From: a virus
IMG/VR virus record: IMGVR_UViG_3300033145_001156
Location: 1 to 64,000 of that record
Strand: one strand, 5' to 3'
Length of the DNA: 64,000 bases
Made by a program: the position numbers and the translations under genes. Within the stretch, counting starts at the first letter, position 1. Each line of letters opens with the position of its first letter. The notes beneath the pieces are model-generated. The model had not been told where the DNA came from, did no database searches, and saw nothing but the letters and a program-made list of their open reading frames with translations. This document shows, piece after piece, positions 6,576 to 25,971 of the stretch.

Positions 6576-6688
6576 AGACTTGCTAGGGAGAGAGAAATGA
6601 GTATAATATCATCAAGCTCCTGGACGGCTCTCTCCCTAGCAGAAGAGATAAACCGGACGGGAGCTTTTGTTGTCTTACAGGAGGATGA

Positions 6689-8029
6689 GTGATGGCCAAG
6701 GCAAGAGTAAAGTACAAAACCAACCCGTTTCAGAAAGCGACGAAGGAACGCTCCAAGCTACGCATGGCAATAGACGGCCCAAGTGGTTCCGGCAAGACGT
6801 TTACCGCGCTGATATTCGCAACGGCACTGGCGAACGGCGGGCGCGTGGCCGTCGTTGATACGGAGCGAGGTAGTGCCAGCAAGTACGCCGATATGTTCGA
6901 GTTCGATGTACTGGAGTTGTCAGAGTACGCGCCTGAGCGATACATAGCGGGGATCACGGCAGCCGAGAAGGCGGGCTATGATGTGATCGTGATCGACAGC
7001 CTGAGCCACGCATGGGAAGGCAAGGGTGGCATATTAGAGATGCACGATGATGCCACAAGACGAAGTCGAAGTAAAAACTCCTACATAGCGTGGCGCGACG
7101 TGACACCCAAGCACCGGTCATTGATAGATGCGATGCTACAGAGTCCATGTCACATCATCGCAACCATGCGAACCAAGACGGCCTATGTCCAGTCGAAGGA
7201 TAGCAGTGGCAAGACCGTTATTGATAAGGTGGGAATGGCCCCGATTCAGCGGGCGGGCATGGAGTATGAGTTTGATATCGTAGCTGATATGGACTTAGGA
7301 CATACAATGGTTATCGGTAAGAGCAGATGCTTCTCTGTGACAGATGACGTTGTGTCAAAACCTACCGCTGAATGGTTCGAGAAGGTACGGGCATGGCTTA
7401 CCACGGGCGCAGAGCCACAAGAGAAGCGAGAGCCGGAAATGGAGACGACCGAAGCGGAAGCGCCGAAGAAGGCCAATGGAGATCCCCCTCGCCCCTGGAA
7501 GCCGGACGTGCTCAAAAGGAAGATGCTAAAAGCAGCAGAGACGAAGGCCTTGTCGGATAGATACGGCGGCGAGCCATCCCAAGAGCAGATCGGTCTCCTG
7601 GCTGGCAAGCTTGAAGAGGCCTGGGCTGGTGACAAGGGCGCAAAGCAGAACCGCTACGAAGTTCTGGGCTGGCTGACGGGTAGACGTAGCACAAGGGACT
7701 TGAACCTTCCGTGGGTAGCAACACTTCTCAAGTGGCTGCTCAAGGGCAAGGATGAGGCAGGCAATTACGAGTTCAACGAGCATGCACGTGAAGAGGCACG
7801 GTTGGTCTACAAGCAGGCCATGCTAGACCAGGGTCAGCAGGAGCTGCCGACGGGCGCAACGCCGCACGAAGACATGAACGGTCATGTCTATGGAGAAGCT
7901 GAGCGCGGGATTAGAGCGCACGAAGCCCACAAGACGCCCGACCAAGGCCAGGAGAAGGCGCAATTCGACGCAGCGCCACAGGAGCAACTAGATGGCCTGG
8001 GCTTCGGAAAGGGAGAGCATGACGCATGA
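6689..8029 (+). CDS. Sak4-like AAA ATPase / single-strand annealing protein with C-terminal extension
   Basis: GPSGSGKT Walker A, VDTERGS, VIVIDSLSHAW, YEFD. Confidence 0.85.
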   Translation: MMAKARVKYKTNPFQKATKERSKLRMAIDGPSGSGKTFTALIFATALANGGRVAVVDTERGSASKYADMFEFDVLELSEYAPERYIAGITAAEKAGYDVIVIDSLSHAWEGKGGILEMHDDATRRSRSKNSYIAWRDVTPKHRSLIDAMLQSPCHIIATMRTKTAYVQSKDSSGKTVIDKVGMAPIQRAGMEYEFDIVADMDLGHTMVIGKSRCFSVTDDVVSKPTAEWFEKVRAWLTTGAEPQEKREPEMETTEAEAPKKANGDPPRPWKPDVLKRKMLKAAETKALSDRYGGEPSQEQIGLLAGKLEEAWAGDKGAKQNRYEVLGWLTGRRSTRDLNLPWVATLLKWLLKGKDEAGNYEFNEHAREEARLVYKQAMLDQGQQELPTGATPHEDMNGHVYGEAERGIRAHEAHKTPDQGQEKAQFDAAPQEQLDGLGFGKGEHDA

Positions 8030-8799
8030 AACTACTAGCGTTCGACTTAGAGATAAGCCGGCCCTTTGTGAACGATGAATGGCGCGGAAAAGACCTGGGC
8101 ATTTCGTGTATCGGTCTAGCGTCTTTCGACGGTGATAAGCACGGCTGTTGGACTATCACGGATGACGCCGCAAGGCACGGAGACCGTGCCATGAAACCGG
8201 AAGGGCTAGGCCTGTTCGTACAGACCCTGGCTCGCTATCAAACAGAGGGCTACGAGATTCTCTCCTGGAACGGCCTTGGCTTCGGCTTCCCGATGCTCTA
8301 CGAATACGTCGAACAGAGGGATCTCTGTAAGAAGGTAGCTCTCGCTCATTATGATCTGGCCTTCCAAATGTTCACGGCCAAGGGCTTCATGATCGGCCTG
8401 GACACGGCGGCAAAGGGGATGGGGCTGTCCGGCAAGCTCGTAGGAATGAGCGGGAAACTAGCGCCGATGATGTGGTCGGGAACGGATGACGCAGAACTGG
8501 CAGAGAGCCTTGAGGCACAGACTGACCTTGTGCCAGGTAGCGTCAAGGCCCAGGAAACCGTTCTCAAATACGTGCAGCAGGACGCGGTGACGACGCTGGA
8601 GGTGATTGAGAAGGCGAACCAGCAGAAGCGGGTATCCTGGATATCTCGGAGCGGGCGGCGGAATACATGGCTTTTGCCCGTAAGCGATCCAGCATGCGGC
8701 CTGCGCAACGTCGCCTGGTGCCTGCAGGAGCCGGAACCCGACACATCCTGGATGAGCGAGCCACGTAGTCGCAGTGATTATGCGGGATGGTTGGAATAG
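8026..8799 (+). CDS. RNase H-fold 3'-5' exonuclease-like protein
   Basis: ExoI FDLE; ExoII-like WNGLGFG (Asp replaced); ExoIII YVQQD. Confidence 0.7.
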   Translation: MKLLAFDLEISRPFVNDEWRGKDLGISCIGLASFDGDKHGCWTITDDAARHGDRAMKPEGLGLFVQTLARYQTEGYEILSWNGLGFGFPMLYEYVEQRDLCKKVALAHYDLAFQMFTAKGFMIGLDTAAKGMGLSGKLVGMSGKLAPMMWSGTDDAELAESLEAQTDLVPGSVKAQETVLKYVQQDAVTTLEVIEKANQQKRVSWISRSGRRNTWLLPVSDPACGLRNVAWCLQEPEPDTSWMSEPRSRSDYAGWLE

Positions 8800-8887
8800 C
8801 ACCACAGTGCGCAGCCTATCGTGACAAGGGCTATCGTTGCCCGGGCCGGACGAAAGAACTCCCTAGACGACGGCTGCGCACTGACGC

Positions 8888-8916
8888 TTGACAAGATTCT
8901 AGATCTGTGGTAGAAT
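8888..8916 (+). promoter_or_regulatory. sigma70 promoter of the HNH-AP2 gene
   Basis: TTGACA-17-TAGAAT with extended TG. Confidence 0.85.
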
Positions 8917-9047
8917 AAGGCAACTGTGAGAGTGCCTATAGATCGAGTGAGGAGCTTTTTCATGAAGATAGCCCGCAAGTTGAACGGTCTGGCAACTCTC
9001 ACAGGTGGCCTCCTCCGACTTGCGGGTTTTCTTATTGAGGGGCAAGC

Positions 9048-9524
9048 GTGAAAGAGATACCGTTGACACAAGGCAAGGTTGCGCTAGTAGACGATGAAGA
9101 CTTTGAGTGGCTAAGAAAATATCAGTGGGTTGCAAAGGCTGATGGCAGAACGCATTATGCCCATTGTACAATTCGGCAAGATGGTGATGTGAAAATGCTT
9201 CTTATGCATCGTTTAGTCATGAAGGCCCTGGCGAGATTGTATGTGCATCATATCAATACTAATGGGTTAGATAATCGGCATAGCAATCTCAAAGTATGCA
9301 CAAGTAGCCAAAATGCTATGAACCGACGAAAGAGGACTAAATGTAGCTCTAAGTACAAAGGCGTACATTGGAATAAATCTCACAAAAAGTGGTATGCAAT
9401 GATAAGATTACGTGGAAGGGTAGAATGGCTTGGCTCATTTAACTGTGAAGTAGAAGCAGCCAAGGCATATAATCAGGCCGCCAAGAGGCTATTTGGCGAC
9501 TTTGCCAGATTGAATCCTCTATAG
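9048..9524 (+). CDS. HNH homing endonuclease with AP2 DNA-binding domain
   Basis: [44 protein letters not shown]; lower GC than flanks. Confidence 0.92.
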
Positions 9525-9605
9525 GTAGACAACCGTGAGAAGCCACCGTATGAGGTTACGGTACAGGGTGTAGCAAGCCTGCACGTGGGGGTAGAGGCAG
9601 GCATA

Positions 9606-9752
9606 GGGCGCGGGCAGCGTGGAAGGACATGCACCCCTCGGCTGGGGTCCACACCCGTAGGAGTCAGCCGAAAGCCACGAGCCTTAACGGATGCGCATCC
9701 CGAGAGGCCAGCGATCAAGTTGGGAGCCGGTATCGAATCCGGCCCCGCGCCC
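9606..9752 (+). ncRNA. tRNA-like structured RNA (about 147 nt)
   Basis: 9-bp terminal stem GGGCGCGGG/CCCGCGCCC; T-arm-like GCCGG-TATCGAAT-CCGGC; D-arm-like GCGTG-GAAGGA-CATGC. Confidence 0.6.
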
Positions 9753-11695
9753 GAACTTAGGAGAATGATGCGTTACGGTTGTAGAAAATGCGATTTGGTT
9801 GGTCAGAATCCTATATGTCCAGAATGTGGCAAGCCTGCTGCACCGGTAGTTCAAGATTATGTGATATGCCGCAGCTGCCACGGGGGAGGGCGCATTTTAC
9901 ACCCTTTCATGCCCTCTTGGGAATGTCCGGTATGTGGAGGCACAGGCGCTGGCTTGGGTTGGATGAAACTCGATCTTCAGACCAGCTCCGCACCCGTTTA
10001 ACGCTAGGCTATGACAGATTTCACAAGGAGGCCCACACATGGAACTTGACGGCAGGATCATATCATTTATGAAGCGACTAGATAACTTGAGAGAATATCA
10101 ATATAGATGCGTGATGCGACGTACAAAGCGACGCTTTGGCATAGCGGTCAATACCGATCCAGATGCACTGGAATGGCAGAAGCTAGATCGGGATATTCAC
10201 AATCTCTATAATGAGGCGATTGCCGTCGATAACAACAGGAGGATCCCATGACAGCGACAACCGAGAAGATACACCAATACCGAACGCTTGAACTCTGGCG
10301 TCACGCTCAAAACGTGATAGCCCGCAATCGTCGTCAGCGCAAGGCGGCTCGGGCCACGCGCCAGAATAGAGGCCAGCGGGCGCGGCACACACGGACAGGG
10401 GCCTGGGCGCGGACGAAACGGGCGTTCTGCAGCCGGAGCTGGAGGAAGTAATGAGCGATGCCGCGCTAGGCATTGGCTTCTGGCTGTTCGCCCTCGGCCT
10501 TTTAGTCCTGAGCATATGGGAACGAATCACGAGGAGGTAATGAAATGTGGTACACAGACTCGCACGGAATACCGCACTACGCATTGATAAGCGAGATATC
10601 GGAGTCCGAGGCGATGATTCAGCACGCCGTCACGGACGCCACCGGGGGCGCGTATACTGCGCCGGATGATCCTCACCGGCGAGGGTGCCTGGGTCGCGTC
10701 TTCGCAGGCGCGATGATGCTTATTGCCCTTTTTTGGCTGGCGATGACCGCAGAATTGTAAATTTGATGAAAGGAGGTGATACTTATGACACCAAAACCGT
10801 CACCGGCCACAGAGAACCGCAAGCCACAGAAGCCGCATAAGCCGGCAGGGAGCCAGGGATGAGACGCGTGGTGAGGACCGCGCCGACCGAGAGGATGATG
10901 GGATGATGCACAAGGGAATAGACTTGCACGACCTGGTATGTGAGCGCACCCAGCGCGTAGCTGAGATTGCAGCACTGCCACCGGAAAAACGCACAGAAGC
11001 GCTACTGGCATTGCGCGCCGAAGTCGAAGCCGCGCGTGGCAAGGGCATGGTACTGGGTGACAGGCAGATAGCGCGGGAGCTGATACGGGCACGAAGGGAA
11101 TTAAGGGAACATGCTAAAGGCGACGATCTACCTTTCGGCATGGGCAGCAAGATTCCGATGGAGAGACCCGTCACGCTGAGGATCGAGGATGATAGGGCAT
11201 GAAACGATCGCGACACGACTGGGACAATCACCTAGCAGAGTACATCACGGAAGAGGTGAGAGATAGAGCTGAAAAACTGGTGAGGGGCATAGCGGATCAG
11301 GATAAGCCGAAGAAGAGGCCAGTGAGAGAAGCATCAAGCGGTTGCTTGACAATGTTAATGCTGCTAATCGTGGCAGCGATAGTGTGCGCACATAGCGCAG
11401 AAAGGAAGTTGACGTGAAGACATTAGGGATTTTGATCGTTCTGGCAGGTATGATGGTAGTAGCCTGGGGATTCGCTGGCGTGACCCAACAGTATGACTTG
11501 TCTCGTGCCAGTGCAATGCAACTGACACAGGTTTATACAGAATCCCTCCGGGTGATGGCGCTGGGCATTGCATCAATGCTGCTTGGCGTGATGGTTATGA
11601 TCCTGCCGCCAGATACAACGCCAAAAGAGAAGTAGCGACTTGACAAACTCTGGCAGGTAGTGTATTTGCGCACATAGCGCAGAAGGAGAGGTATC

Positions 11696-12319
11696 GTGGA
11701 GACACTTAAGAAATGGGGCAAGAGAGTGCTGTTTGTGGTGGGCGCAATGGCGCTCATCCTGGTCGGCATGATGATGGCCCCGGCGGGAGAGACTGAGCAG
11801 GTCCCGGCGGCGACGCACACGCCGTATCCGACGCCGGAACCACTACCGACGCACACGCCGTATCCGACGCCGGAACCGACATATGCGCCAGTTCCAACAT
11901 CAAGGCCGGAACCGACGGTAGCGCTGGAGATCTATAACGAGCAGGAGTTCCTCGTGATGTTCACCTTGCACGTCTGCAACTCGGCGTTCTGCGAAACCAT
12001 CAAGGAGTACAGGGCGGCATTCCTGAGCGGGGATGCTTCCCTACAGTACGAGGCATTCCTCGCAGTGTGGGCTGTGGACTCAGTCACGATCGAGGCGCTG
12101 GCGATGACGAGCCTTGCCGGGGTGGGCGGCAAAGTCCGGGACCTCTACCGCGACACGCTGGAGACCGCTGAGTCTGTGGTGGGGATGTGTGACGTCGGGA
12201 TGGAACTCACTTCGACCGGCGTTGCTGCTCCACGGGACACCATGGTGGATTGGCTCGACGCCGCAGGAGAGTTGTGCGACCTTCTGGCGACCAGCGCGAT
12301 CTGGGAACCGTTCCGGTAG
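11696..12319 (+). CDS. Membrane-anchored protein with duplicated THTPYPTPEP linker
   Basis: N-terminal TM helix; 36-bp-period duplication near 11811-11880. Confidence 0.7.
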   Translation: METLKKWGKRVLFVVGAMALILVGMMMAPAGETEQVPAATHTPYPTPEPLPTHTPYPTPEPTYAPVPTSRPEPTVALEIYNEQEFLVMFTLHVCNSAFCETIKEYRAAFLSGDASLQYEAFLAVWAVDSVTIEALAMTSLAGVGGKVRDLYRDTLETAESVVGMCDVGMELTSTGVAAPRDTMVDWLDAAGELCDLLATSAIWEPFR

Positions 12320-12372
12320 AGAGGAGTTGGCGTTTGGCTGACTATGTGGTATACTAGCCAAGGAGGTGGAAG

Positions 12373-12687
12373 ATGTGTGAGATCTTGTTTACGATGGTGG
12401 AGAAGTTGGAGATAGTAGTTGCCGTGTCGTTCGTGATCGGCCTCTTGGTCGAGCTGTTCCCTGGGTTCTCTGAGTTGGAGGAGTACAAGAGGGCGTTGAT
12501 CGCGGCAGGCATCTCCGTCGTCCTGCCCGTGGGGGCGTTCCTGATCGGCGCGGTGCAGTCCTGCTGGGCAATGAACTGGGACTCGGCACTGCCGTTCGTG
12601 GTCGCGGGACTGGCAGCCGCGGTGGCTGCGCTAGGTGGTGAGAAGGCTGTTGGGGGCAAGCGGAGCTTCAGCGCGAGGAACAAGTAG
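12373..12687 (+). CDS. Small 3-TM membrane protein (holin-like)
   Basis: Three hydrophobic segments, basic C-terminus; AGGAGG RBS; TGnTATACT just upstream. Confidence 0.5.
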   Translation: MCEILFTMVEKLEIVVAVSFVIGLLVELFPGFSELEEYKRALIAAGISVVLPVGAFLIGAVQSCWAMNWDSALPFVVAGLAAAVAALGGEKAVGGKRSFSARNK

Positions 12688-13362
12688 GACTTTGCGCAAA
12701 GTTTAGCCCAGGCCCGGAGGCCGTCTTGGGGATTGAGGGAGGTGGGTGCCATCGTCGGGATTGCGGGTATGGCTTAACCAAGAAGGTGATGACGCTGGGT
12801 AGTACTCACATGAACACGGGACTGAATGTGAGGAATGGGTGCAAGAGTACCCAGCCAAAAGAGCATGGGCGGTACGGGGAACGTACTTGCGGTTATTAAG
12901 AGTCAAAACGTAACTTATCTTCATTGTTCTAGGGGGGTGGGTTAGCCACCCACCCCCCCAAAAAAGGAGAAGCAACATGTGGAGAGACAAGCGGATATGT
13001 AGACTGTTATGCGTGCTGGGAATCCATGTTCTGCTAGTTGGATTGCCGAATGGGCTATATCATTGTGGGCATTGTTCGACAGTAGTGGTGGCATAGTAAT
13101 TTGAGAAATGGGTGGGCATCATGCAGGCAGTTTATAACGATGGCACGGAAGGCGAACAGCTCACGGCCCGAGGGGCGCAGGAAACTTATCTGACCCTCGC
13201 AGCCCTATTGGCCGACGCGAAAGTAGAAAGCGTGAGAGTTACGCGCCAGCCAAGGCCGGAGACATGGCGTAGGGCTGGCAAGAAGGGGCGCAAGCAGGAA
13301 CGGTACTTCTGAGATACGGGAATGGCCATGACTGGGCGGGTGGGGTTGGCCAGGAAGATGAC

Positions 13363-13496
13363 TTTACAGATTTGGCGAAACGTGGTATAATTATAGTGCG
13401 TCTGGGATGAGTCATTGAGTGTCTCGTAGCGGGATTATCAATCCTAGCCCTAGTCGCAGAACGTAATTTTGACAATTCACTGAAATGTAGTATAAT
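13363..13496 (+). promoter_or_regulatory. Tandem sigma70 promoters
   Basis: TTTACA-17-TATAAT (13363-13391) and TTGACA-16-TATAAT (13469-13496). Confidence 0.75.
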
Positions 13497-13742
13497 ATGG
13501 TTGGTGGGACGGGGCAACCCATCAATAATCACAAGGAAGACACACACAATGATAAGTTACATAACGACTAATGAAAACGGTTCTCACAGGCCAGTCCTTT
13601 CGCAGAAGGGGCTGCCCAGCCCTAAACATTGTGTGTGTCGGGGGCTGGCCGGTGAGAATCGTTTTTGCATTTGTGGGGACAGGTATGCGCCTGTCCCCTT
13701 CGTGCGTTCTAGGACTTTGCGCAAAGTTTAGGAGGGACCATT

Positions 13743-14291
13743 ATGGGCATCAGACCTAAATTGCTTCTGTGTATTGGCATCGATGACTTTGCGCCCGGTG
13801 ATCGATTTGACGAGACCACATACCTACGTGTCATGGAAGATGATGTGTTTGATATTCCGTTAGGATTCATGGAGCAAGAGCACCCAGAACTTCAGGAGAA
13901 ACGGTTCTTGCACGACTACATCGTTCATGATACTGAATATGGGGACCCGCAGATTTTCGCCATTAGGGCACCTGGTAGTCAAACTATCGGCCCGGAGATA
14001 CCACTATATGCCCTCGCTCAGTATTTGGGTTGCAACACGAACTGGCATTATGTGTTTCAACCTGTGCAGTGGGGGAAAGATGGTTATTGGCCTCATGAAG
14101 TAGCAGAGTGGCAAGCAGAGCATCAAGGCAGATTTGGAAACGGTGCTGGAATTGACCGGCATTATGATCTACTTGAGTATCCTTATCTGTGCGAGTCAGT
14201 CATGCAGTGGGCCACGAAGGTGCTGAACTATGTGGGATTTCATGTTAGCATTGAAGATTTGAAAGTCATGCTGTACTTGTACTGGTGTTAA
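13743..14291 (+). CDS. Hypothetical protein
   Basis: ORF track; AGGAGG RBS directly after a palindrome copy. Confidence 0.7.
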   Translation: MGIRPKLLLCIGIDDFAPGDRFDETTYLRVMEDDVFDIPLGFMEQEHPELQEKRFLHDYIVHDTEYGDPQIFAIRAPGSQTIGPEIPLYALAQYLGCNTNWHYVFQPVQWGKDGYWPHEVAEWQAEHQGRFGNGAGIDRHYDLLEYPYLCESVMQWATKVLNYVGFHVSIEDLKVMLYLYWC

Positions 14292-14344
14292 GACAACTGA
14301 AAGAACTGAATAGACTTTGTGCAAAGCGCAAGAAAGGGAGAGAT

Positions 14345-15907
14345 ATGACAGAACCAACATGGCAAATTTCTTTGCCCTCACCAAGAGGCAATAAACGTCT
14401 CATAGAACTACCAGCAACTGGTATGGTTATCAGCCCTCTGAACCCCCGGAGGACGCGCCCAGAAGATGAGATAGATTTACTGGCATCCAGAATCAGGCAG
14501 CATGGTTATGAGATCACCCGCGCTATTTGGGTACACGAGGTGAACGAGCATTACGAAGTTTTCGCCGGAGGCACACGACTTGAGGCGGCCAAGCGCGCAG
14601 GAATGTCGCTGATTCCTTCGATTCTGCATGAAGGATTCAGCGAAGATGAAGTTTGCAAGCTGGCCGAACTTGACAATGAGAACGACGAGTACCACCAGCC
14701 CGTGCCTATCGTGGACGTGTGGCTGTCCTACAAGGCTCTGGCTAACGCGGGTTGGACGCAGCCCCGGATAGCGCGGGCTAAGGGATGCTCACAGTCATTT
14801 GTAAGTCTGCGCTTGGCATTAGCAAAACTACCTGAACCTATCCTAAGACAATTTATTAACAATGAAGAGTTGAAAGAGCGACATGCTCTTGAAATCATCA
14901 AATTATTAACAGTTAATAATCTCACTCCCTGGCTGACCCGCGAACAGGCCATGCTGGAGGTCATCAAGAAGGTGGGGATCGGGACGGCGGCGCAGTTCGC
15001 CAAGAAGGTGAAGACGTACAATACCATCATCGGAGAGGTGCAGACGTTTGCTGACGGCCTGGAGTATCAGCGCCGGCAAGAGTTCCTGGAGGTCCTTGCC
15101 GAAAAGAAGGTGCGGACGGTAGCGGCAGCTAAGAACATAGCGGCCAGGATCACGTATGCCATTGCTGAGGCGGCGCGCAGGGCCGAAGAGGATGCCCTCA
15201 TTGCTGTGCAAGAGGCCGAGCGCGAACGCATCGAGGCGGAACGCAAGGAACGTGAGGCCCAAGAACGGCAACGATGGTTCGATAATAACGTAACCCTGAT
15301 TCACGGCGACTTATTGTCGGTACAGATCGAGGACGAATCGGTGGATATGATATTCACGGATCCCCCGTACAGTGAAGATTCTATTTCACTATACGGCGAT
15401 CTGGCGAAGTTGGGGGCGCGTGTATTGAAACCTGGTGGCAGCCTGATCTGCTATGCGGGCCACTATGCCCTTCCCGAGATATTCTCCTTGATGACGCCAC
15501 ACCTGCGGTTCTGGTGGACGCTGGCCTGTGAGCATGGCGGCAACTCTGCACGACTACCTGGCAAGTGGGTATTCGTGGGGTGGAAACCAATGCTGTGGTT
15601 CGTCAAGGAAGGCCGTCGAGACAAGGAGTACGTGGCCGATATCTTCAAATCTACGCAGCCGGACAAGTCCCTGCATGAATGGCAACAGGATACCTCGGAG
15701 GCGGCCTACTACATTGAGCACCTGACCGGTCAGGGCGATATCGTGTTGGACCCGTTCTGTGGATCGGGCACTACGTTAGTAGCAGCGATCAATCTGGGAA
15801 GATTGATTATCGGCGTTGACCAGGATAGAGAATCGATTGAGACAACCAGGGAGCGACTAGATGAATACTACACCCGACAATCCGGAGCATATCCAACTAG
15901 AGAATGA
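14345..15907 (+). CDS. ParB-like N-terminal domain + HTH + coiled coil fused to N6A/N4C DNA methyltransferase (beta-class motif order)
   Basis: SPLNPRR and FAGGTRLEAAK (ParB/Srx); TQPRIARAKGCSQSFVS (HTH); FTDPPY before LDPFCGSGTT. Confidence 0.88.
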   Translation: MTEPTWQISLPSPRGNKRLIELPATGMVISPLNPRRTRPEDEIDLLASRIRQHGYEITRAIWVHEVNEHYEVFAGGTRLEAAKRAGMSLIPSILHEGFSEDEVCKLAELDNENDEYHQPVPIVDVWLSYKALANAGWTQPRIARAKGCSQSFVSLRLALAKLPEPILRQFINNEELKERHALEIIKLLTVNNLTPWLTREQAMLEVIKKVGIGTAAQFAKKVKTYNTIIGEVQTFADGLEYQRRQEFLEVLAEKKVRTVAAAKNIAARITYAIAEAARRAEEDALIAVQEAERERIEAERKEREAQERQRWFDNNVTLIHGDLLSVQIEDESVDMIFTDPPYSEDSISLYGDLAKLGARVLKPGGSLICYAGHYALPEIFSLMTPHLRFWWTLACEHGGNSARLPGKWVFVGWKPMLWFVKEGRRDKEYVADIFKSTQPDKSLHEWQQDTSEAAYYIEHLTGQGDIVLDPFCGSGTTLVAAINLGRLIIGVDQDRESIETTRERLDEYYTRQSGAYPTRE

Positions 15908-16466
15908 CGTTAGAAAATACCTGTCTGGATTGGGGTTTTTGACAGATGAGGCCACGTATCATAGCGTTATGAACCCGAAAGTCAAGGATCGGTTATCTCA
16001 CATTTACACGCCAACTTCGTTATATATCAGGGGAAGAGCTGACAGGATCGCCGTCCATACTCAATATGATATCGTTTTTGAGTGGGAGGCCAAGACGCAT
16101 ACGTCAAAGAAGTACCATGATATGACATTAGAAGCTCTGCCACTGTGTCATCATCTGGCGAAAATTCAATTAGACGTTGAATGTCTTTATGTCTATCGTG
16201 ACTCAATTGTTGGCTATGATTGTGGGTTCTGGGTGAAAGACATTCCGCCGATACGCGTCATAATGATCCCTGAGCGATGGGGCAGAGCCAAGTCGGATTG
16301 GTTCAAGGATCAATTCACCAGATTTTGGCCCGAAACAAAGATACGAACTACTCCGGCCTACGGCGGTAGCGGAGATCCGTTTGTGATCATAGATCAGTCA
16401 ATCGTGGCAAAATTATCACATTGGCAAGATTGTATCCGAGCGAAATTGAGCGAAGGCGAATTCTAA
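15861..16466 (+). CDS. Putative PD-(D/E)xK nuclease (possible restriction endonuclease)
   Basis: LENDV...RADRIAV...FEWEAKT; overlaps the MTase gene; lower GC. Confidence 0.5.
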   Translation: MNTTPDNPEHIQLENDVRKYLSGLGFLTDEATYHSVMNPKVKDRLSHIYTPTSLYIRGRADRIAVHTQYDIVFEWEAKTHTSKKYHDMTLEALPLCHHLAKIQLDVECLYVYRDSIVGYDCGFWVKDIPPIRVIMIPERWGRAKSDWFKDQFTRFWPETKIRTTPAYGGSGDPFVIIDQSIVAKLSHWQDCIRAKLSEGEF

Positions 16467-17143
16467 CAACTGAATAGGCACGTCCAGCGAACGCAGATAA
16501 CGCTGACCAAATAATACTGTCCCGACGTCGAAAGACAGCGCTCAGCGAACCAGAAAAAACCGGCAGGGCATGTCGGATGCTGAAAACAAATCCCGCGCTA
16601 CGGTGAGAATTGGGGCACTCACGAAGGCATCAATCGAAGCAACATCAGGGTTCACCGCGTAGCCAGCGACCCTCAGAGATTGACGTCGACCCTCCTGTCT
16701 GAGCCAAAAAGTCGTTGCCTGGGGCGGGTTATGCCTAAGAATAAAATATAAAGTAAAGTGCGTAAGCACTCCTGCGTAGCAGGAAAAACAGAAATAAACT
16801 AACTCAAGTTTATGGATTTGGCGGGGATATTGTCTACGACGTTCTTGGTGGGAGTTTTACGCGCTACGCGCGTGCTGCTACGCAGCATTTTCCACAACAG
16901 GGAAAAACACGTATATGATGTAGATAATTGGCATTTTAGTGGTAGATAGTCCTGGGGGGATGAGATGGTGATGCTGAGGGTGAGTTCCGAGCTGGGTGAC
17001 GGGGTGATGGTGCGCCTGCTGACCGAGAGGTCTATGGAGGTGTGCGACAGGTTCTCGGACGTCATGGAGGACGTGGTGACTTGCAGGTTGCGGGACGAGT
17101 GCGAGGTCAAGTGCGAGCTGATCGAGGCGTTCAAGGAGGGGTG

Positions 17144-17704
17144 ATGTTCAAGAAGATTGATGGGGTGGAGATGGAGTTCACCGATGAGGCGGACAAGTGG
17201 GGGTATTATCCGGCGGGGATTCCGGTGGATTTGGCGTTTTGCCAGGGTAAGTGGTGTTGGGGGGCTAGTGTTGGGGACAACACGGAGCAGTTGTATCGGG
17301 CGGCACAGAACGCGAGGCATAGGCACGACTTTCTTCCCTGCTATGTATTAGTATCGCTTGACTTGGAGAATTGGGCCAACTCTGTGAGTCATGGGATTGA
17401 AAAAGGGGGCGATGATTATCGCTGGGGGGGCAGGTATTTACAGGTTGAGGTCGCCGGGTATTTGCCCGAGAACACTTGGTTTTTGACGGGGCCTGATGAT
17501 TTTGAGGGGAAGTCGCGACAAGTTGAGGAAGACCTGAGTGCATACAGGTATCGAAAAGAAAACCCTCGCCCTCGTTTGTCATGGCTTGCGCTTTTGTTGC
17601 CAAATGGCGATTTGGGTATGCACCCACTTGGTGTAATATTTACGTTCTTGGGCATGGTGTTGGTTGTAACCCTGATTTGGGGCATGATCGGTAGTTGGTG
17701 GTAG
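17144..17704 (+). CDS. Hypothetical protein with C-terminal TM helix
   Basis: ATG 17144 after AAGGAGG within ORF 17042..17704. Confidence 0.6.
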   Translation: MFKKIDGVEMEFTDEADKWGYYPAGIPVDLAFCQGKWCWGASVGDNTEQLYRAAQNARHRHDFLPCYVLVSLDLENWANSVSHGIEKGGDDYRWGGRYLQVEVAGYLPENTWFLTGPDDFEGKSRQVEEDLSAYRYRKENPRPRLSWLALLLPNGDLGMHPLGVIFTFLGMVLVVTLIWGMIGSWW

Positions 17705-17846
17705 ACTTTGCGCAAAATTTAGGAGGTAGTGATGGTGGTGTTGATGTTCAGCGTGGGCGCGGGGTTCTCCGATGAGAAGTTGGCGAGGCTGTTGTCTAGG
17801 AAGGCGGAGGAGTTGGCTGATAGTTTGGCCGGTGCGGTTGAGGACG

Positions 17847-18284
17847 TCATATGCGAGGAGCATGGTTGGGACATGACTGAGGTTCACTGCGAGATGTTGA
17901 AGCAGGTGTGTCAGACTTTGCGCAAAGTTTGACGTCGAACACGATACGTGGGTTATCGCTTCTTACTGCGGGGTGACTGGTGATTCTAAAATGACAGTCG
18001 TCCAGGCCGATGACAGAGGCTAGAATATCAACAGGCAACTTCACCATGTTCGAACTGTCAGGGAGTCGTCCTCGCCTTCGTGGGCAGAACACCCGGACGT
18101 CCACGAACACCTTCTCCGGGACTCCCCGGTAGTCCAGCAGCATGAGCTGGTTCTGGATGAGTAGCCTGAAGTCCCACAGCCAGTCGGTCACGACCTTCTT
18201 CTTCCCGTACCGGGGACTTCCTCGTCGGTAACAAGAGTTGACCGAGAGAGCTGCCAGGTAGGGACACACTACTGTGAATTCCAT
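17847..18284 (-). CDS. rusA: RusA-like Holliday junction resolvase
   Basis: LSVNSCY N-terminal motif; PDSSNMVKLPVDIL...GLDD acidic pattern; minus-strand TTGCGC-17-TATACT upstream. Confidence 0.7.
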   Translation of the reverse strand: MEFTVVCPYLAALSVNSCYRRGSPRYGKKKVVTDWLWDFRLLIQNQLMLLDYRGVPEKVFVDVRVFCPRRRGRLPDSSNMVKLPVDILASVIGLDDCHFRITSHPAVRSDNPRIVFDVKLCAKSDTPASTSRSEPQSCPNHAPRI

Positions 18285-18421
18285 GCCCAGAGTATACCAC
18301 GAACGTCGTTTTGGCGCAAGTTTGTCTGCCAATATGTCGCAACTTTACAATATTATCCGTAAATATATCCCCATAAACGCAAAGTAAAGTAAACTCATCG
18401 TGAAACTCGTGCTAAAAACCC

Positions 18422-18450
18422 TTGACAATTGTAATATTATGTGGTATAAT
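18422..18450 (+). promoter_or_regulatory. Consensus sigma70 promoter (AACCCTTGACAA family)
   Basis: TTGACA-17-TATAAT with extended TG. Confidence 0.92.
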
Positions 18451-18606
18451 TCAACTAGAAAAGAGAGAGAAAACCTTAACAAGAAAATACACTCAGCGAC
18501 ACCGGACAAGATCCAGAACCACCACCAAGTAGGCGATGACCTAGAGAATCCCAAGAGGGCTAGGCCAACCGAAGTGGCAAGAGGGGGGAGGGGCTAACAA
18601 GGTGGG

Positions 18607-18787
18607 GAAGGCGGCAGGAGGTTGAGTCCTGCCAGATGCTCGGGTCATCAGACCGCTGCTAGGAACCGCCAACGTGGTGAGCCGATGTGGCGACGGCTGA
18701 GGGAACGTGAAACTCAGAAGGACGTCGAAGGTGAGTGGGAGCGCCGAAACGGAACTGGCGATGACCTGGGTATCTGGTAGGACTCAA
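18607..18787 (+). ncRNA. Structured leader RNA, copy 1 of GAAGGCGGCAGG element
   Basis: 28-bp helix 18622-49/18760-87 with four G-U pairs, overlapping a local hairpin 18613-33. Confidence 0.75.
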
Positions 18788-19180
18788 ACGAACTTATAAC
18801 CCTAAAGGAGAGAGTAATGAACATTCAGAGGAAATTGAGCAATGGGAACTGGACAGATACGGGAGAGTTCACTGATAGCTACATTAGTGATGCTCTCAAC
18901 AGGGAACCGATGCAGGCCGAATGGTTCAAGCGGGAACCACTAATGAGCAAGGCCGAGGTTCTGGATCACCTGGCCAGCGGCCAGACTCTCAAATATGATG
19001 ATGAGTGGTATGAGGAATTGAGAGACGCGGATGCAGCGAAGTGGCAGCCGAAACCACGTCGGGTCGTAGAGATGGTGCGATGTGATTGTGGGCATGATGT
19101 TCCAGTAGGAACGGCAATGTCATCGTCACGTGGGACATGCTGTCCAGACTGCTATGACAGGATGAGTGATTAGCGGTGAG

Positions 19181-19300
19181 GAAGGCGGCAGGGATTATGT
19201 CCTGCCAGAAGGTCATCAGCAGATTGATTGAGTTCAGCTATTAGTTTCGGCGGTTGGGGGACTGCCGAGGCACTGCTGGTGGTTTTCTGGTAGAATATAA
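19181..19300 (+). ncRNA. Structured intergenic RNA, copy 2 of GAAGGCGGCAGG element
   Basis: 28-bp helix 19195-222/19273-300 (G-U rich, one C-A), overlapping the local hairpin. Confidence 0.7.
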
Positions 19301-19676
19301 ATAAAAGACAATCCTAACAGAGCAAGAAGATCGGGGGGACTTTGTCCTCCATATATGCCGGTGCGGGCACAGAGACCCACCAGCCAACGAGACGTGATTA
19401 CCCAAAGTACCCGTGCTCGCGGGGAAACAGAGAAAGCGGGCTGGCACTTGGTGCGAAACCAGGGCGCGGCAGCAGCATATTTCACCAGTCATACGATTGG
19501 TTTGTAGAGAGGGTGGTCCGGGGGGTCGTGCCCCTGGGAGCTAAGGCCAGCAGGAGACGGGACTGCAATTCGCCGGGGGATGACACCCTGGATGGAACGC
19601 GGCGACGGGGAAGCTGGTGCTGGAAGGTGCGGGTAAAGAGGCTCGGTGGGACGCCACCCTAATCTAGGAGGAGAAT

Positions 19677-20036
19677 ATGAAACTGCTGACGAAGAAGTTG
19701 AAGAAGGCGTTGCCGGAGTTGTACAGCCAGGAGGAAGTGGAAGACCCGACGATCGTGGTCAAGTTCTTCCACCCGATGAGCAGCTGGAAGTGGTTTGCAT
19801 ACGAGGCCAGCGCTCAGTGGCTCGTGGACGGAGAGGTGGTCTACAGGGCGCTGAGTGACCCGGACGAATCGGGGGAGTACCTGGACACCACGTTCTTCGG
19901 GCTGGTGAAGGGGTTCGAGGAAGAGCTGGGATACTTCTCGCTGAAGGAATTGTCGGAGGTGCGAGACAGTTGGGGTTTGGGCGTGGAGCGCGACATGTAC
20001 TTCAATTCGGTTCCATTGTCTGAGGTAAGGAGTTAG
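19677..20036 (+). CDS. DUF2958-like protein
   Basis: [56 protein letters not shown]. Confidence 0.8.
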
Positions 20037-20410
20037 GAAGGCGGCAGGGATTGTGTCCTGCTGGAAGTCTGGCAGTGGGGATATTACTGGGATTGGTGAT
20101 GGGATTGTTATCAGTTATCGGGAGGGATGAACATGAATAAGATGACGTGGGCACACGCGATAGAGCTTGGGATACTGAGCGATGAAGCCAGCGCATACTT
20201 TGAGGCGCTAGAGGCCGAGGCGCGGGCGAAAGAATCCTTAACCTATGAGTACAGGCGCAGCTTTCCCAGCCCATATCCACCATACGCTGTTCAGTTACAG
20301 GATGGCGTAGCCATCGGTGCGACGGCCAATCTCTATGATGGCGCTGAGAATGAAGACCCCCGAACGTGGCGCTACTATCCCGCCGAGGCCGGGGTATGTG
20401 CTATCGAGTA

Positions 20411-20462
20411 GCTCGAAACGCCCCACGGGGCGTCCACCGGTGAGGCCGGTGCTGATGAGAGC
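20411..20462 (+). ncRNA. Hammerhead ribozyme, type II
   Basis: GCTC-GAAA-[CGCCCC ac GGGGCG]-TC^-[CACCGG tgagg CCGGTG]-CTGATGA-GAGC; complete core and three stems; intergenic. Confidence 0.92.
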
Positions 20463-22278
20463 AGACGGGAGGAGGAGGATGGTAACGAGGGAGCAGAACA
20501 GGCTGAACATCCTTGTGGATTTATACTTGGATGATCGGAGTATCCTGTCAGACAGGCAGAAGAACGCTGCCTGGGAGGAGATCAAGCGGCGCGATGCGCT
20601 GGGTGAGTTTTGGTCGGTCATGTTGCAGCGATGGGTGGGAGGAGATGATGCAACTACTACGGTGGAGGATACGCAGCGCGGATCCCGGCTGGCCAGAAGT
20701 GGAAGTGAGCGCGCCATCTGCTCAGGAAGCAGCAGAACAGGGCTTTGATTGGTATGAGCGCGTGGTTGTGCGCGAAGTCATGATGGATTCGCTCGGGCGC
20801 AAGAGAGGATTGGGAAAAGAAACGGAATGGCATAAGGAGGATAATCATGGCGTGGTCAGTGACGAGGCGGGCGACGGACGAGGATTACGAATTACTGGAG
20901 AAGCGGGCAGCGGCCTTCATCGGGCGACACCAGATCACGTGGCATGAAGGGGATTCGGCAGTCGGGGCAGTAGAGCTCGAGATTGAGTGGCTTCGGTTAC
21001 CCGATAGCAATGAATTCCAGCAGATGGAGGGCAAACGCCTGGAGCGTCTCTGGAAACGAATCTGCAACAGGGCGATAGGAGACGACGGGATCTGTTTCGG
21101 GAGTGTCGGGCATAGCGTGGATTAACATGTACAGCGCACGAGAGGAGCGCTATATAAGAGTTGCCCTAACGCCATGAAAAAACCAGCGGGGTGCGTAGAA
21201 AGCTGGGACGACTGGGCTTCGAGAATTCAGCGGTATCAGCGTATTTCATATGGCTGTGTCTACACGCACCGGAAAGTTGATCCTTCCCGCCAGCAGGGAT
21301 GCGGAAGTTGTCTTCAGTGACGGCCTAAATGTGGGTAGTGGGTAATGTAGAGTCCCGCGACTTCCTTCACTTGAACTAGACAAGTGCAGCATCATCCCTG
21401 CTGGCGAGAGTGATCAATAAATCAGAGGAGGAAAAAGTGATCAAGTATCATAGCCATAATGGGTTTTACAATGACGGGAATTCGTGTTACGTAACTGAGG
21501 ATCGGACACTCGATATTGAAGCTGGGACCCTGACTATTAAGTCGGTCGAGAGCTTGGGTGGGCAGCTTGCAGGTAACCACCAGTTTGCTCACAAGGAGAA
21601 TGTCACTGAGGAAATCCGGGAGGCTGTTCCGTTTTCGGTTGAGCAAGAAGATGCTGTTTGGAAGGCGCTGGAGCCGCTGGTGGAGACGGCGAGGAAGTAT
21701 CCGCATTTGGAGACGTTCCGGTTCTTCTCCGACAAGCACCGGTGGTTCGTGAAGGGTCGAATCGACAAGGCGGTCAGGCTGGCGGGGGATAGCGACTACC
21801 ACGGGGTGTATTGCTTGAAGGACGTGTTCGCGCTCCCGAAGCATGGCGTGGTATTGACGGCTTATTATGAGGACACCTATAAGCATTCGTATTGGAAGTT
21901 CAGGGTGGAATCGCTAGGAGGAGAAGGTGAAGACGCCATACATCGGGTTCAGCAATGAGACATTGGACAAGATGCCCACGGTCAAGGCGGGGACATTATC
22001 GAATGTCAGAAGTGCGGCGGTGAACATAGCGCGAAGGGCGTTGTACAAGAAGGCTGACTGGGAAAAGAAGGGTGGTTACAAGGCGTTTCATCGCAGTTTC
22101 GCAAATGCAAGCACTTTCACAACAGAATGACGTTTTCGACAGGATGCAGTTACACATCCTGAGCCTGGGGTACTACGTGGACCAAAAGGTACTGATCCTA
22201 GTACTCTTGTAGCGTAGAAACGCTACGCTTAGTGTATCCTGGGCTGAACCGCGCGCTTTGCGCGCACTACTTGGGTCG

Positions 22279-22387
22279 GTTGCAGTCTTCGAGAAGTGAA
22301 GTAGGAAACTGTAACACGAGGTGACATATGAGCAAGAAGAAATTGCGAGAGGTGGTTGCAGTCTTCGAGAAGTGAAGTAGGAATCTG
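22279..22387 (+). CRISPR. CRISPR-like mini-array: 37-nt repeat, 39-nt spacer, 3'-degenerate second repeat
   Basis: GTTGCAGTCTTCGAGAAGTGAAGTAGGAAACTGTAAC at 22279-315; first 29 nt identical at 22355-383. Confidence 0.65.
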
Positions 22388-22649
22388 CTGAACCCATCGC
22401 GACGCCAGGAAAACAAGCGGCCATGGTCGGCGAATACGTGCATGGCTACGGCGACGATTCGGCAGCAGCGGGGGCTAGTCTCCCGCTGTCCGCCGAACAT
22501 GTTCGGTGTGGTAGCGCTCACGGATCCCAGGGGTGCCTACTACCAGTTGATAGCGTGGTGGTTCTAGACAGCTGCATAGCGACTTGGGCATCGGATGGGG
22601 GATCTGACATCATGTTCGGCGGGCAGAGTGGGATTAGCAATAGAAACCC

Positions 22650-22678
22650 TTGACAATTCTGTTCTTTTGTGATATAAT
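22650..22678 (+). promoter_or_regulatory. Consensus sigma70 promoter (AACCCTTGACAA family)
   Basis: TTGACA-17-TATAAT with extended TG. Confidence 0.92.
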
Positions 22679-23798
22679 TAAGTAGAAAGGATGGGGTGAT
22701 GAGGAGCAAGATTCTGGATGAAGTTGTGGCTCACGGGGTCAACTCAGATACAGTGTGCGAGGTCGCGGGGTTGCTGGCGGTGGAGGGTACGGTGGGTGTC
22801 TTTGAGGTTGCGACGGAGATAGGAACTCGGACGGATCAGATGTACCAGCCACATCTGGGGGTAAAGAAGAGACCGACGCAGGAACTGGTCGATTGGGTGG
22901 CCGAGGTTTTGGAAAAGGAGTGGTGATATGAAGGGACAGGAGCTGTGTGACGCACACATCGCGGCAATCAGGCATGCGAGCGGTGACAGGTGTGCCGACA
23001 AAAGTGAGGTGTATCATGACAAGGGCTGGTACTATGTCAAGGTGGCACAGAAGGCCCATGACGGCAGTTGGGGCACGTGGGGAGTAGCTAGTCCTCGTCG
23101 CGCCCAAGACATCATCGCCAGGATAAGGATGTTGCGGGGGAGGGTTAGCTATGAGACGAGAAGGAGCCGCCTAGCCCATGCCCGTGAAGTTGAACTCGCG
23201 CATCACATATCCGTCGAGCGCGTCTGGCGGGAGGTGTCGGACAGCTACGAGGTCAGGATGTCCGTCCCGTCGTCGCTCATCAAGGGGATCCAGGACATGC
23301 GGGACTTCGGGGACACGGTTGATGAGGCTATCAGGGTGGCGGAGGGGATGGAGGGGGAGTGATGCTGAGGGAACGAGCACTAGAAGCGTGGATCGAAGAG
23401 GAGAGGGGCCGGAAGGATGCTCAGGAGCGCACGGACGTCGGGCTGTTCAGGAGGGCCAGGGAGCATTTCTCCAAGGCGTTCGGGGTGGAACCTGAGGTTG
23501 TCAAGCGCACCAGCCACTGGGTCGAGGTGGGGGCCGGGGGCATGGTGTTCTTCTTCAACCCGATGACGAAGACTTACTGGTTGTGGGGCGAGTGCCCGGA
23601 CTGCGGATGGCATTGCTGGTCGTCGCGCGGGTTCCAGACGCTGGGCGAGATGGGGAGGGTGATTGCCGAGTTCAAGCCTGAGGGGCACAAGTGCGGGACC
23701 CCAGAGGATGTGGAGGAGACTGCCGCTGAGACTTTGCGCAAAGCGTGGCGAGCCTTTATGATGGAGGAGTGATGAAGGAGCGAATAAGGAAATGGAAT

Positions 23799-23827
23799 TT
23801 GACAATTTCGTAGAGATGTAGTATACT
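23799..23827 (+). promoter_or_regulatory. sigma70 promoter of tnpB
   Basis: TTGACA-17-TATACT. Confidence 0.85.
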
Positions 23828-23957
23828 ATTGACACTGCGAAGAACCGATAGCGTTTCCGAGGACTTTCTTTTGGGGCTAATCCCCGAGATTAAGCGCTGG
23901 TTCTTCGCAGGAAGCAGCCTTGGGTCTCGGGGATTGTCTATTTCTGGAGATGATTGA

Positions 23958-25218: not shown

Positions 25219-25309
25219 GTTTCCCCCACGCACGTGTGGGGAGTTTGAACACCATCTGCTACTACGCGGTGAAGCGGAACGTTTCCCCCACGCACGTGTG
25301 GGGAGTTTG
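25219..25309 (+). CRISPR. CRISPR mini-array: two identical 29-nt type I-E-like repeats and one 33-nt spacer
   Basis: GTTTCCCCCACGCACGTGTGGGGAGTTTG at 25219-247 and 25281-309; CCCCAC/GTGGGG hairpin; spacer AACACCATCTGCTACTACGCGGTGAAGCGGAAC. Confidence 0.85.
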
Positions 25310-25971
25310 GAGCGAACGAAGTTCCGTCTGTATCGGTGGTGGGCGAAGCTAACAGGCGAACCGGTGATCATCTGTTGTCAGAAGAGACGTGCGCCCAGGT
25401 GGTGGATTGTGTTTCCGCACAGGGGGAGATGATGAGGAAGGGAAGTGAGATTGGGGCTGGATGAGGATGTTTGGTTTCGGTATCCCGCTGTTGTGCCTTG
25501 GGACGTAGAGGTTATAGAGGAGGACTTGTGATGGAGTACTGGCGCGGAGTTATGTGGTGGACAGTTTCGCCTGAGTGGGCCTGCATCATATGCGGGCACA
25601 GAGGGATGACGTGGGGGTTCGTCCGCGCGGAGTGCAGGTGCGACCTGTGCCATGCGAGGTACTTCATGCGGGACAGGGACGGGAAGATCATCAATGTCCC
25701 CATCACGCTGTTGAAGGAGGATTTCCAGGAACCGGCCAGGGAGCTGTGGGGGAAGTACCGGATACCTATTGATCAATTAACGGATGAACAGTGGGAAGAG
25801 GTGGGTATCGAGTTATAAGGGGGATGACGTGAAGAAGAAGGAGTATCAGAAGCTAGTGAAGACGTGTCAGGAGAGCAAGGGTCAGGGGACCTGTGATGGC
25901 TGTCCTGACTTCTGGGCGAAGGAGTGTGTGAAGGGGAAACATGCCATCTTGCGCTGGATAGGGGGATGGAT

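Follow-up and report, generated by a model that had tools for sequence, protein, structure and literature searches.

What do four leaders that differ in sequence, precede unrelated genes and yet arrange their complementary segments in one and the same order do to the genes behind them? These leaders lie within the first 64 kb of IMG/VR virus record IMGVR_UViG_3300033145_001156 (positions 1 to 64,000, the whole stretch of DNA analyzed, here called the window). The record comprises 105,622 bp, has direct terminal repeats, and its genes are directed along the plus strand. Leader 1 precedes the gene for a Sak4-like AAA_24 ATPase, leader 2 that for an HNH_3 plus AP2 endonuclease (HNH-AP2), leader 3 that for a 182-aa protein without assigned function (gene 13743; followed by a ParB-methyltransferase fusion), and leader 4 that for TnpB (OrfB_IS605, Cas12f1-like_TNB, and HTH_OrfB_IS605 domains). 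A first-pass annotation had named these genes in the same way and had described, behind sigma70 promoters, two interleaved helices per leader, in the order A-B-A′-B′, as a pseudoknot or attenuator. As detailed below, this topology is non-random and promoter-anchored, and the features encoded in the leaders make it likely that they are cis-acting RNAs throttling expression of the gene behind them, probably a kind of throttle that has not been described.

Interleaved helices at the 5′ ends of four phage transcripts

All eight helices were found, at most 1–2 nt away from where the first-pass annotation had placed them (Table 1). The A helices are perfect duplexes of 10–14 bp with 33–75 nt between their arms; the B helices comprise 9, 13, 27 (with one mismatch), and 14 bp in leaders 1–4, respectively. 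In leader 1, A:A′ (14 bp) has a stacking energy of −30.6 kcal/mol and B:B′ (9 bp, including one G-U pair) of −17.2 kcal/mol. The corresponding values are −20.2 (10 bp) and −25.0 kcal/mol for leader 2, and −26.1 (13 bp) and −26.5 kcal/mol for leader 4. In leader 3, A:A′ (13 bp) amounts to −23.7 kcal/mol and B:B′ to −22.8 and −24.6 kcal/mol; this B helix had been reported with 24 bp, which is too short. The four leaders have no sequence in common beyond chance words of 8–9 nt, and only promoters P1 and P2 are near-identical, so the earlier statement that the leader sequences differ stands.

To judge whether such an arrangement is expected by chance, the stacking energy of the weaker stem in the best interleaved pair was taken as the test statistic for each leader. 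The values for leaders 1–4 (−17.2, −20.2, −23.7, and −26.1 kcal/mol) were reached by 0 of 1,000 dinucleotide shuffles per leader. In the whole genome, only nine interleaved clusters have both stems at or below −20 kcal/mol. Three of them (leaders 2, 3, and 4) start within 60 nt past a strong −10 box, positions that account for ∼0.75% of the genome. When the threshold is set to −22 kcal/mol, leaders 3 and 4 are two of the three clusters left. Among the 146 helices at or below −20 kcal/mol in the genome, the 5′ arm starts 4–12 nt past a strong −10 box in just three, the A helices of leaders 1, 2, and 4; there, arm A starts 5–7 nt past the −10 hexamer, which is approximately the first transcribed base. 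The B stem of leader 1, considered by itself, is at background level, as 50 interleaved clusters genome-wide pass at −17 kcal/mol.

The promoters in front of the leaders are of the sigma70 type, as had been claimed (TTGACA-N16/17-TAnnAT; 11–12 of 12 matches). They belong to a set of 13 near-consensus promoters (TTGACAAtt...TGtgGTATAAT) on the plus strand of the record, 11 of which are within the window. Nine of the 13 are followed by a Shine-Dalgarno (SD) sequence and a start codon within ∼20–40 nt, or by other kinds of leaders; the remaining four (6547, 8888, 13469, and 23799) lead into the interleaved helices.

Table 1. Positions of the leader elements, upstream open reading frames (uORFs), and promoters in the window.
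Feature	Start	End	Strand	Remark
Leader 1, arm A	6581	6594	+	starts 5 nt past −10 (∼+1); holds SD-like GGGAGAGAG of uORF1
Leader 1, arm B	6614	6622	+	5′ half of weak terminator-like helix
Leader 1, arm A′	6628	6641	+	14/14 identical in homologue L114
Leader 1, arm B′ and U-rich tail	6658	6678	+	B′ = 6658–6666; 7 T in 12
uORF1	6597	6692	+	31 codons; TGA overlaps sak4 ATG at 6692
Leader 2, arm A	8924	8933	+	7 nt past −10
Leader 2, arm B	8970	8982	+	helix with B′
Leader 2, arm A′	8995	9004	+	within 33-nt loop of B:B′
Leader 2, arm B′ and U-rich tail	9016	9040	+	B′ = 9016–9028
uORF2	8962	9051	+	29 codons; GTGA overlap, stop on GTG (9048) of HNH-AP2 gene
Leader 3, arm A	13539	13551	+	42 nt past −10; final three bases are uORF3 ATG
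Leader 3, arm B	13572	13599	+	helix with B′
Leader 3, arm A′	13627	13639	+	abuts B′ directly
Leader 3, arm B′ and U-run	13640	13673	+	B′ = 13640–13667; 8 T in 12 nt past 13661
Leader 3, second local hairpin	13675	13698	+	10 bp, −25 kcal/mol
uORF3	13549	13731	+	60 codons; stop 11 nt before ATG 13743; 73%-identical predicted protein P0004
Leader 4, arm A	23835	23847	+	7 nt past −10
Leader 4, arm B	23878	23891	+	lower stem of hairpin able to zip to 7-nt loop
Leader 4, arm A′	23898	23910	+	overlaps apical part of extended B hairpin
Leader 4, arm B′ and U-rich tail	23923	23948	+	B′ = 23923–23936
uORF4, doubtful	23871	23957	+	TTG start, 28 codons; stop abuts tnpB ATG; 12% of shuffles
Promoter P1	6547	6575	+	TTGACA-17-TATGAT, TG-extended; 27 nt near-identical to P2
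Promoter P2	8888	8916	+	TTGACA-17-TAGAAT
Promoter P3	13469	13496	+	TTGACA-16-TATAAT, 12/12
Promoter P4	23799	23827	+	TTGACA-17-TATACT

Terminator-like stems, alternative folds, and leader reading frames

A U-rich run comes after B′ in every leader, in agreement with the first-pass annotation: the 12 nt downstream of B′ contain 7, 6, 8, and 6 T in leaders 1–4, compared with 20% T genome-wide. With stacking energies of −17 to −47 kcal/mol and this tail, B:B′ has the stem and the U-tract of an intrinsic terminator. It lacks the short loop (∼3–8 nt), the B loops of leaders 1–3 being 35, 33, and 40 nt long; the hairpin of leader 4 zips to a 7-nt loop only with mismatches. Ordinary nested folding retains A:A′ in leader 1 and B:B′ in leaders 2–4 (z-scores −2.1, −1.5, −4.9, and −2.7). 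When either fold was enforced at the RNA length at which the polymerase stands on the U-run, the A fold and the B fold had energies of −31.7 and −26.5 kcal/mol in leader 1, −36.3 and −40.7 kcal/mol in leader 2, and −42.8 and −42.7 kcal/mol in leader 4. The gaps of 5.2, 4.4, and 0.1 kcal/mol mean that these three leaders have comparable alternative folds close to the promoter, as attenuators do, whereas the B fold of leader 3 is ahead by 13.8 kcal/mol. In the A fold of leader 4, arm B is tied up in a local GGGG/CCCC hairpin. The arms of A and B share no bases in leaders 1–3, and A′ of leader 4 overlaps only the apical extension of the B hairpin.

The 31-codon uORF with a stop codon overlapping the sak4 ATG, which the first-pass annotation had reported for leader 1, is present as described. 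It is not confined to this leader, since leaders 2 and 3 also have a uORF and leader 4 has a doubtful one. Like the leader ORFs of attenuators, uORFs 1–3 cross B, A′, and B′ and end at or near the main start codon. ATG-started ORFs of that length ending at this position occurred in 0.7%, 4.3%, and 2.1% of the shuffles of leaders 1–3 (12% for the frame in leader 4), and in each of the four leaders the open frame outscores the other two frames in codon usage. Arm A contains the SD of uORF1, and the ATG of uORF3 is formed by the last three bases of A; thus, A:A′ would hide these start sites. The frame of uORF2 stays open back to GTG 8926 in arm A, where in-frame GTG codons lie. The SD of the HNH-AP2 gene itself (9037–9042) is located 3′ of B′, and its promoter 5′ of A. 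Apart from a serine run (SSSS) in uORF1, repeated rare or cognate codons were not noticed in the uORFs.

The same design in other phage contigs

A scan of ∼0.96 Mb of other phage contigs on both strands, for interleaved stems at or below −20 kcal/mol that have a promoter-like site and a 12-nt tail with 5 T or more, yielded 16 non-redundant clusters with a U-rich tail. In five of them, the −10 box of a promoter ends 4–7 nt before A (contigs L003, L120, L203, L213 with its twin L214, and L216); their sequences are unrelated. Three of the five elements precede HNH-AP2 genes, one precedes replication genes, and one a second promoter. In L203, L213, and L216, the element ends 16–20 nt before the HNH-AP2 start, and a weaker instance in L207 ends 12 nt before it. 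Counted within the HNH loci, three of five independent clusters fall into the 4.7% of the sequence situated just upstream of an HNH start. No SD is visible at the HNH starts of L207 and L213, where B′ ends 12 and 16 nt upstream, respectively, as would be predicted for translation that relies on coupling. The L120 promoter agrees with the consensus at 12 of 12 positions, and an ATG comes immediately after A; behind the element lie a 48-aa ORF, a 280-aa protein, and a DnaB-like helicase. In L003, a second consensus promoter lies behind the element. A′ and B′ of L213 overlap by 3 nt.

In the nine instances taken together, A to B′ covers 86–129 nt, one linker around A′ has 6 nt or less in seven, and in seven (leaders 1 and 3, L003, L120, L203, L213, and L216) the start codon of the traversing ORF lies within A or not more than 3 nt past it. 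The proposed link to potentially toxic nucleases and recombinases is supported only in part. The association with HNH-AP2 genes is borne out by L203, L213/L214, and L216, and weakly by L207. As a general rule it is not supported, because the design also precedes replisome genes (L120) and a second promoter (L003), was not found upstream of 13 TnpB homologues, and is missing from an 80%-identical sak4 homologue.

Short ORFs of 24–32 codons precede HNH-AP2 genes in L201, L203, L211, L218 (∼1406–1503), and the window (8962–9051). They begin with MK(R/T/I), continue with hydrophobic residues, and end at or overlap the HNH-AP2 starts in unrelated phages. These may be leader ORFs, or else encode genuine small membrane peptides.

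Selection on RNA or on small proteins

Near-identical phage records were not found in the collections. The closest IMG/VR relatives share at most 59% (sak4) and at most 56% (TerL) identity, which explains why IMG/VR provided no orthologous leaders; relatives of TnpB and of HNH-AP2 are at most 43% and 50% identical, respectively. The 13743 protein had no relatives in IMG/VR, and back-translation of the conserved uORF3 block into a search pattern gave no match. Alicyclobacillus phage MMB025 (58% identity in Sak4) has neither promoter nor leader before its gene. Scanning metagenomes with Sak4 returned two relatives: L114, with a homologous leader that is truncated, and L113, which lacks the cassette. 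In L113 (Sak4 80% identical), an ordinary gene is located upstream and both promoter and leader are absent, which indicates that the cassette was gained or lost between close relatives.

Contig L114 encodes a Sak4 with 81% identity and carries the 3′ two-thirds of leader 1. A′ is the same at 14 of 14 positions, the B:B′ pair 6618:6662 has changed from U-A to C-G, and the other three differences are in linkers. A +1 and then a −1 indel shift the frame over ∼20 codons, and a frame nevertheless remains open to a TGA overlapping the ATG. Covariation, which the first-pass annotation had proposed as a check, amounts to one compensatory pair, in B:B′, in the only homologous leader found. This pattern, one pair in one sequence, argues for leader 1 being under selection as RNA, and perhaps for an open frame, not for the peptide.

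The same comparison bears on another explanation of the leaders, namely that ordinary small protein genes (29–60 aa) head these operons and that the helices are an unrelated 5′ hairpin and a weak internal terminator, their interleaving being meaningless. The ORFs do have SDs, phage-typical stop–start overlaps, and positive codon scores, small MK-plus-hydrophobic ORFs precede several HNH-AP2 genes, and uORF3 has a counterpart in the 73%-identical predicted protein P0004. Conservation between uORF3 and P0004 covers the blocks that match B, B′, a palindrome, and the second hairpin but neither the A′ block nor any cysteine residue; uORF3 was, therefore, rejected as a zinc-ribbon protein. This lack of cysteine conservation, the absence of Pfam matches, and the L114 peptide, frame-shifted over ∼20 codons while the RNA arms are kept and one pair is compensated, all speak against small protein genes. 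So do perfect long-range helices of 10–14 bp in the same order, promoter-anchored, in nine unrelated sequences. Taken together, this explanation is considered very unlikely.

Possible coexistence of the two helices

Whether A:A′ and B:B′ can form at the same time depends on the linkers, which comprise 19/5/16 nt in leader 1, 36/12/11 nt in leader 2, 20/27/0 nt in leader 3, and 30/6/12 nt in leader 4. According to a geometric estimate from these lengths only, they allow an H-type pseudoknot in leaders 1, 2, and 4. In leader 3, it is not feasible for the full stems because A′ abuts B′ and 20 nt would have to join A to B across ∼40 bp; the pseudoknot of the first-pass annotation would, with full stems, apply to three leaders at most. 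If both helices formed together, the result would be a long coaxial H-type pseudoknot including the 5′ nucleotide, which might serve as a static 5′ stabilizer or RNase barrier, as a ribosome roadblock, or as the body of a stable terminated small RNA of ∼100 nt. The interleaved order with one short and one long linker resembles H-type pseudoknots, a free 5′ end at +1 could wind into a closed loop, the summed stem energies plus a pseudoknot penalty are, by rough estimate, comparable with those of the nested folds, and the unit in L003 is placed by itself between two promoters, as a small RNA gene would be. However, stems of 13–27 bp are far longer than in known H-type pseudoknots, the helices of leader 3 cannot both form completely, and the ORFs and U-tails would be left without explanation. 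A static pseudoknot, therefore, appears quite unlikely as the common function.

A proposed translation-gated attenuator

The U-rich tail, the terminator-like B hairpin, the alternative folds of similar energy, and the leader ORF uphold the attenuator half of the earlier proposal. We put the probability that the leaders work as translation-gated attenuators at roughly 0.45; termination at B′, translation of the ORF, and the order of events are deduced from sequence features. According to this model, the first 10–14 transcribed bases (A), which usually bear the ribosome-binding site (RBS) or the start of the short ORF, would pair with A′ located 35–75 nt further downstream. The wide, terminator-like B:B′ would straddle A′ and be followed by the U-rich run and the start of the main gene, and the short ORF would begin at the 5′ end, traverse B, A′, and B′, and stop at or beside the main start codon. 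For loading, a ribosome would have only the short time until A′ is transcribed. Once loaded and trailing the polymerase, it would keep both A:A′ and B:B′ open, so that transcription reads through; the ribosome would mask one arm of the wide terminator anywhere from 50 to 95 nt behind the polymerase. It would then be handed to the main start via stop–start coupling. Without a ribosome, A:A′ would shut the start site, B:B′ would form, and the transcript would end at the U-run. Re-formation of A:A′ behind the first ribosome would limit each message to few translations.

Several observations weigh against this model. A scan for consensus terminators flagged none of the B:B′ helices, only a small sub-hairpin in leader 4, and with B loops of 31–40 nt in addition, termination may be inefficient. 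Since A:A′ and B:B′ share no nucleotides, their mutual exclusion would have to be topological or steric. The best uORF start is not covered by A in leaders 2 and 4, and the uORF of leader 4, with nothing better than a TTG start, is unremarkable by the shuffling test. The main genes behind leaders 1–3 each have a good SD and, thus, do not require coupling. The codon scores of the uORFs (0.01–0.21 per codon) are at or below the lower quartile (0.139) of 30-codon chunks of real genes. The covariation consists of a single pair in a single truncated homologue, and the L003 element precedes another promoter rather than a gene.

As an alternative, A:A′ might be the ON state. It would form first and block closure of B:B′ by steric or topological strain, which results in read-through; occupation or removal of the 5′ end (by an initiating ribosome, a 5′ exonuclease, a protein, or an RNA) would free the terminator and turn the gene off. 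A′ is transcribed before B′ and, thus, has kinetic priority, the two folds are similar in energy, and one linker has 6 nt or less in seven of the nine instances (0–6 nt in leaders 1, 3, and 4). In leader 4, A′ overlaps the apical terminator hairpin and the A fold sequesters B in the GGGG/CCCC hairpin; A′ of L213 shares 3 nt with B′; and terminators can be suppressed by structures with which they share no bases (bioRxiv 10.64898/2026.06.17.733018). Outside leader 4 and L213, however, the arms share no bases, and the linkers of leaders 1, 2, and 4, L003, L120, and L216 let both helices coexist. Moreover, no toggling signal is evident, and it would not be explained why A often carries the start of the ORF crossing the element. 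We, therefore, regard A:A′ as the ON state as unlikely.

Extending the translation-gated attenuator to all instances leads to a more far-reaching and rather doubtful idea: that the leaders represent a widespread, uncatalogued class of phage elements defined by topology. In this class, a 5′ strand with the start of an ORF would invade a wide terminator loop, only a ribosome loading within ∼1 s would rescue the transcript, and re-locking would confine it to about one translation; the elements would be gained and lost together with accessory genes such as those for HNH-AP2 homing endonucleases. If the translation-gated mechanism holds, selfish or dosage-sensitive genes could be expressed sparingly behind consensus promoters with neither a protein nor a ligand, and transcriptional read-through would be coupled to the first round of translation. 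The concept of the antiterminator would be widened, as the competing helices share no bases, which ties in with the “tug-of-war” results discussed below. A module of 86–129 nt that is defined by topology and independent of sequence would be invisible to sequence-based RNA family searches; it would also be easy to test on synthetic templates and might become a part for synthetic biology.

Comparison with known systems

The leaders belong to no named family. They resemble attenuators and the control of homing-endonuclease genes but are not classical members of either class, since their competing helices have no bases in common and the hairpin spares the main RBS. Neither at the gathering threshold nor at E ≤ 1 did an Rfam family match any of the four leaders, and none matched the analogous leaders of L203, L207, L213, and L216. 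Four known types of elements were rejected: a group I intron core (P3/P7 order), for which the element is too short and which found no Rfam match; a hepatitis delta virus-like ribozyme, whose P1 stem has ∼7 bp compared with 10–14 bp of arm A; a type III antitoxin RNA, because tandem direct repeats are absent; and terminal inverted repeats as in miniature inverted-repeat transposable elements, because the arms are unrelated between leaders.

In ribosome-mediated attenuators (pyrBI; trp and his; the uORFs tnaC and speFL), a ribosome trailing the polymerase decides on read-through. The leaders have in common with them a short leader ORF overlapping a terminator just in front of the structural gene. 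They differ in that they have no evident run of regulatory codons, that the competing helix and the terminator have no bases in common, that this helix hides the leader ORF's own start at the 5′ end of the RNA, and that the terminator loop measures 31–40 nt. Attenuation dependent on a uORF is, as such, a known precedent (reviewed in PMC12360218).

Genes for T4-type homing endonucleases (mobE, segB, and I-TevI) are controlled by terminators, RBS-sequestering hairpins, and promoter placement, and seg43 of Aeromonas phage 25 has a stable hairpin just upstream of its RBS (PMC2988022). As in the leaders, negative controls at the RNA level, thus, precede free-standing HNH or GIY-YIG genes. In T4, however, the hairpin covers the RBS of the endonuclease gene, which is freed by a late promoter inside the hairpin, whereas here the promoter is upstream of both helices, the main SD is outside, and genes that do not encode nucleases are served as well.

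In the c4-icd-ant system of P1/P7 and with the CI RNA of P4, RNA pairing represses translation of a leader ORF, which results in premature termination before a harmful gene. There, too, a single phage leader transcript contains complementary segments distributed over its length. In contrast, these systems employ a processed, trans-acting RNA and Rho, whereas pairing in the leaders is intramolecular and the stop signal looks intrinsic. Rfam includes a C4 family, to which positions 5500–35000 showed no match at E ≤ 1.

The interleaved stems close to the 5′ end of a phage mRNA are reminiscent of the H-type pseudoknots of gene 32 in T4 and T2; the stems of the latter have a few bp and constitute a protein-binding site, whereas those described here have 9–27 bp, a U-tail, and a traversing ORF. 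In the “tug-of-war” mechanism, an intrinsic terminator is suppressed, at short spacer lengths, by a structure with which it has no nucleotides in common (bioRxiv 10.64898/2026.06.17.733018). Such non-overlapping antitermination makes the design of the leaders plausible, with the difference that the structure there is upstream of the whole terminator, whereas here it is made by the terminator loop and the 5′ end of the transcript.

Leader 4 and the surroundings of tnpB

TnpB normally sits in IS200/IS605 elements, the ends of which carry sub-terminal hairpins. Leader 4 could, thus, be the left end of such an element, with the hairpin as the recognition palindrome of the transposase. However, tnpA is absent, the hairpin sequence has no copy downstream of tnpB, and P4 fits the phage's own promoter consensus. 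Furthermore, 13 TnpB homologues from phages and bacteria have neither comparable upstream helices (the best reaching −12.7 kcal/mol) nor sequence similarity to leader 4, which renders an insertion sequence end extremely improbable.

Approximately 145 nt past the tnpB stop codon (25220–25310), a 29-nt palindromic repeat (GTTTCCCCCACGCACGTGTGGGGAGTTTG) occurs twice around a 33-nt spacer. Judged from its sequence, this looks like a CRISPR-like mini-array beside the 371-aa TnpB/Cas12f-like gene.

Other features of the phage

An exact-match search with the promoter word shared by P1 and P2 returned two unrelated contigs. One of them, the AT-rich IMG/VR contig L112, has at 88–118 on the minus strand a promoter with ∼28 of 31 nt identical to P1/P2 and an SD directly after it. 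Between the end of gene 8026–8799 and promoter P2, there is a perfect 12-bp inverted repeat (8805–8816/8872–8883) with 55 nt between its arms and no U-run after it. No tRNA genes were found in the window.

The palindrome GACTTTGCGCAAAGT, with two mismatches or less, is present at ∼17 sites (32 strand matches, compared with 0.2 expected), including 2744, 12688, 13713, 17704, 17914, 23730, 27765, 30343, 33552, 35578, 42702, 44161, 50966, and 59788, among others. One site lies within leader 3, just 5′ of the SD of gene 13743, and another 55 nt upstream of P4. By its sequence, the palindrome looks like a candidate operator motif.

Apart from the four leaders, the phage seems unusually rich in long-range RNA helices. 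Four of 20–28 bp have 61–110 nt between their arms: 18622–18649/18760–18787, which is part of a 365-nt purine-rich leader after the promoter at 18422, 21277–21301/21393–21417, 22474–22501/22611–22638, and 34281–34300/34362–34381. The last is within ORF 34002–34970; the other three are outside the listed long ORFs. A weaker interleaved pair of helices (50306–50430; approximately −19 kcal/mol) is situated just inside the coding region after the promoter at 50235. Finally, a type II hammerhead ribozyme (Rfam RF02276; 39.1 bits, with a gathering threshold of 37) lies between two genes at 20410–20470 on the plus strand.

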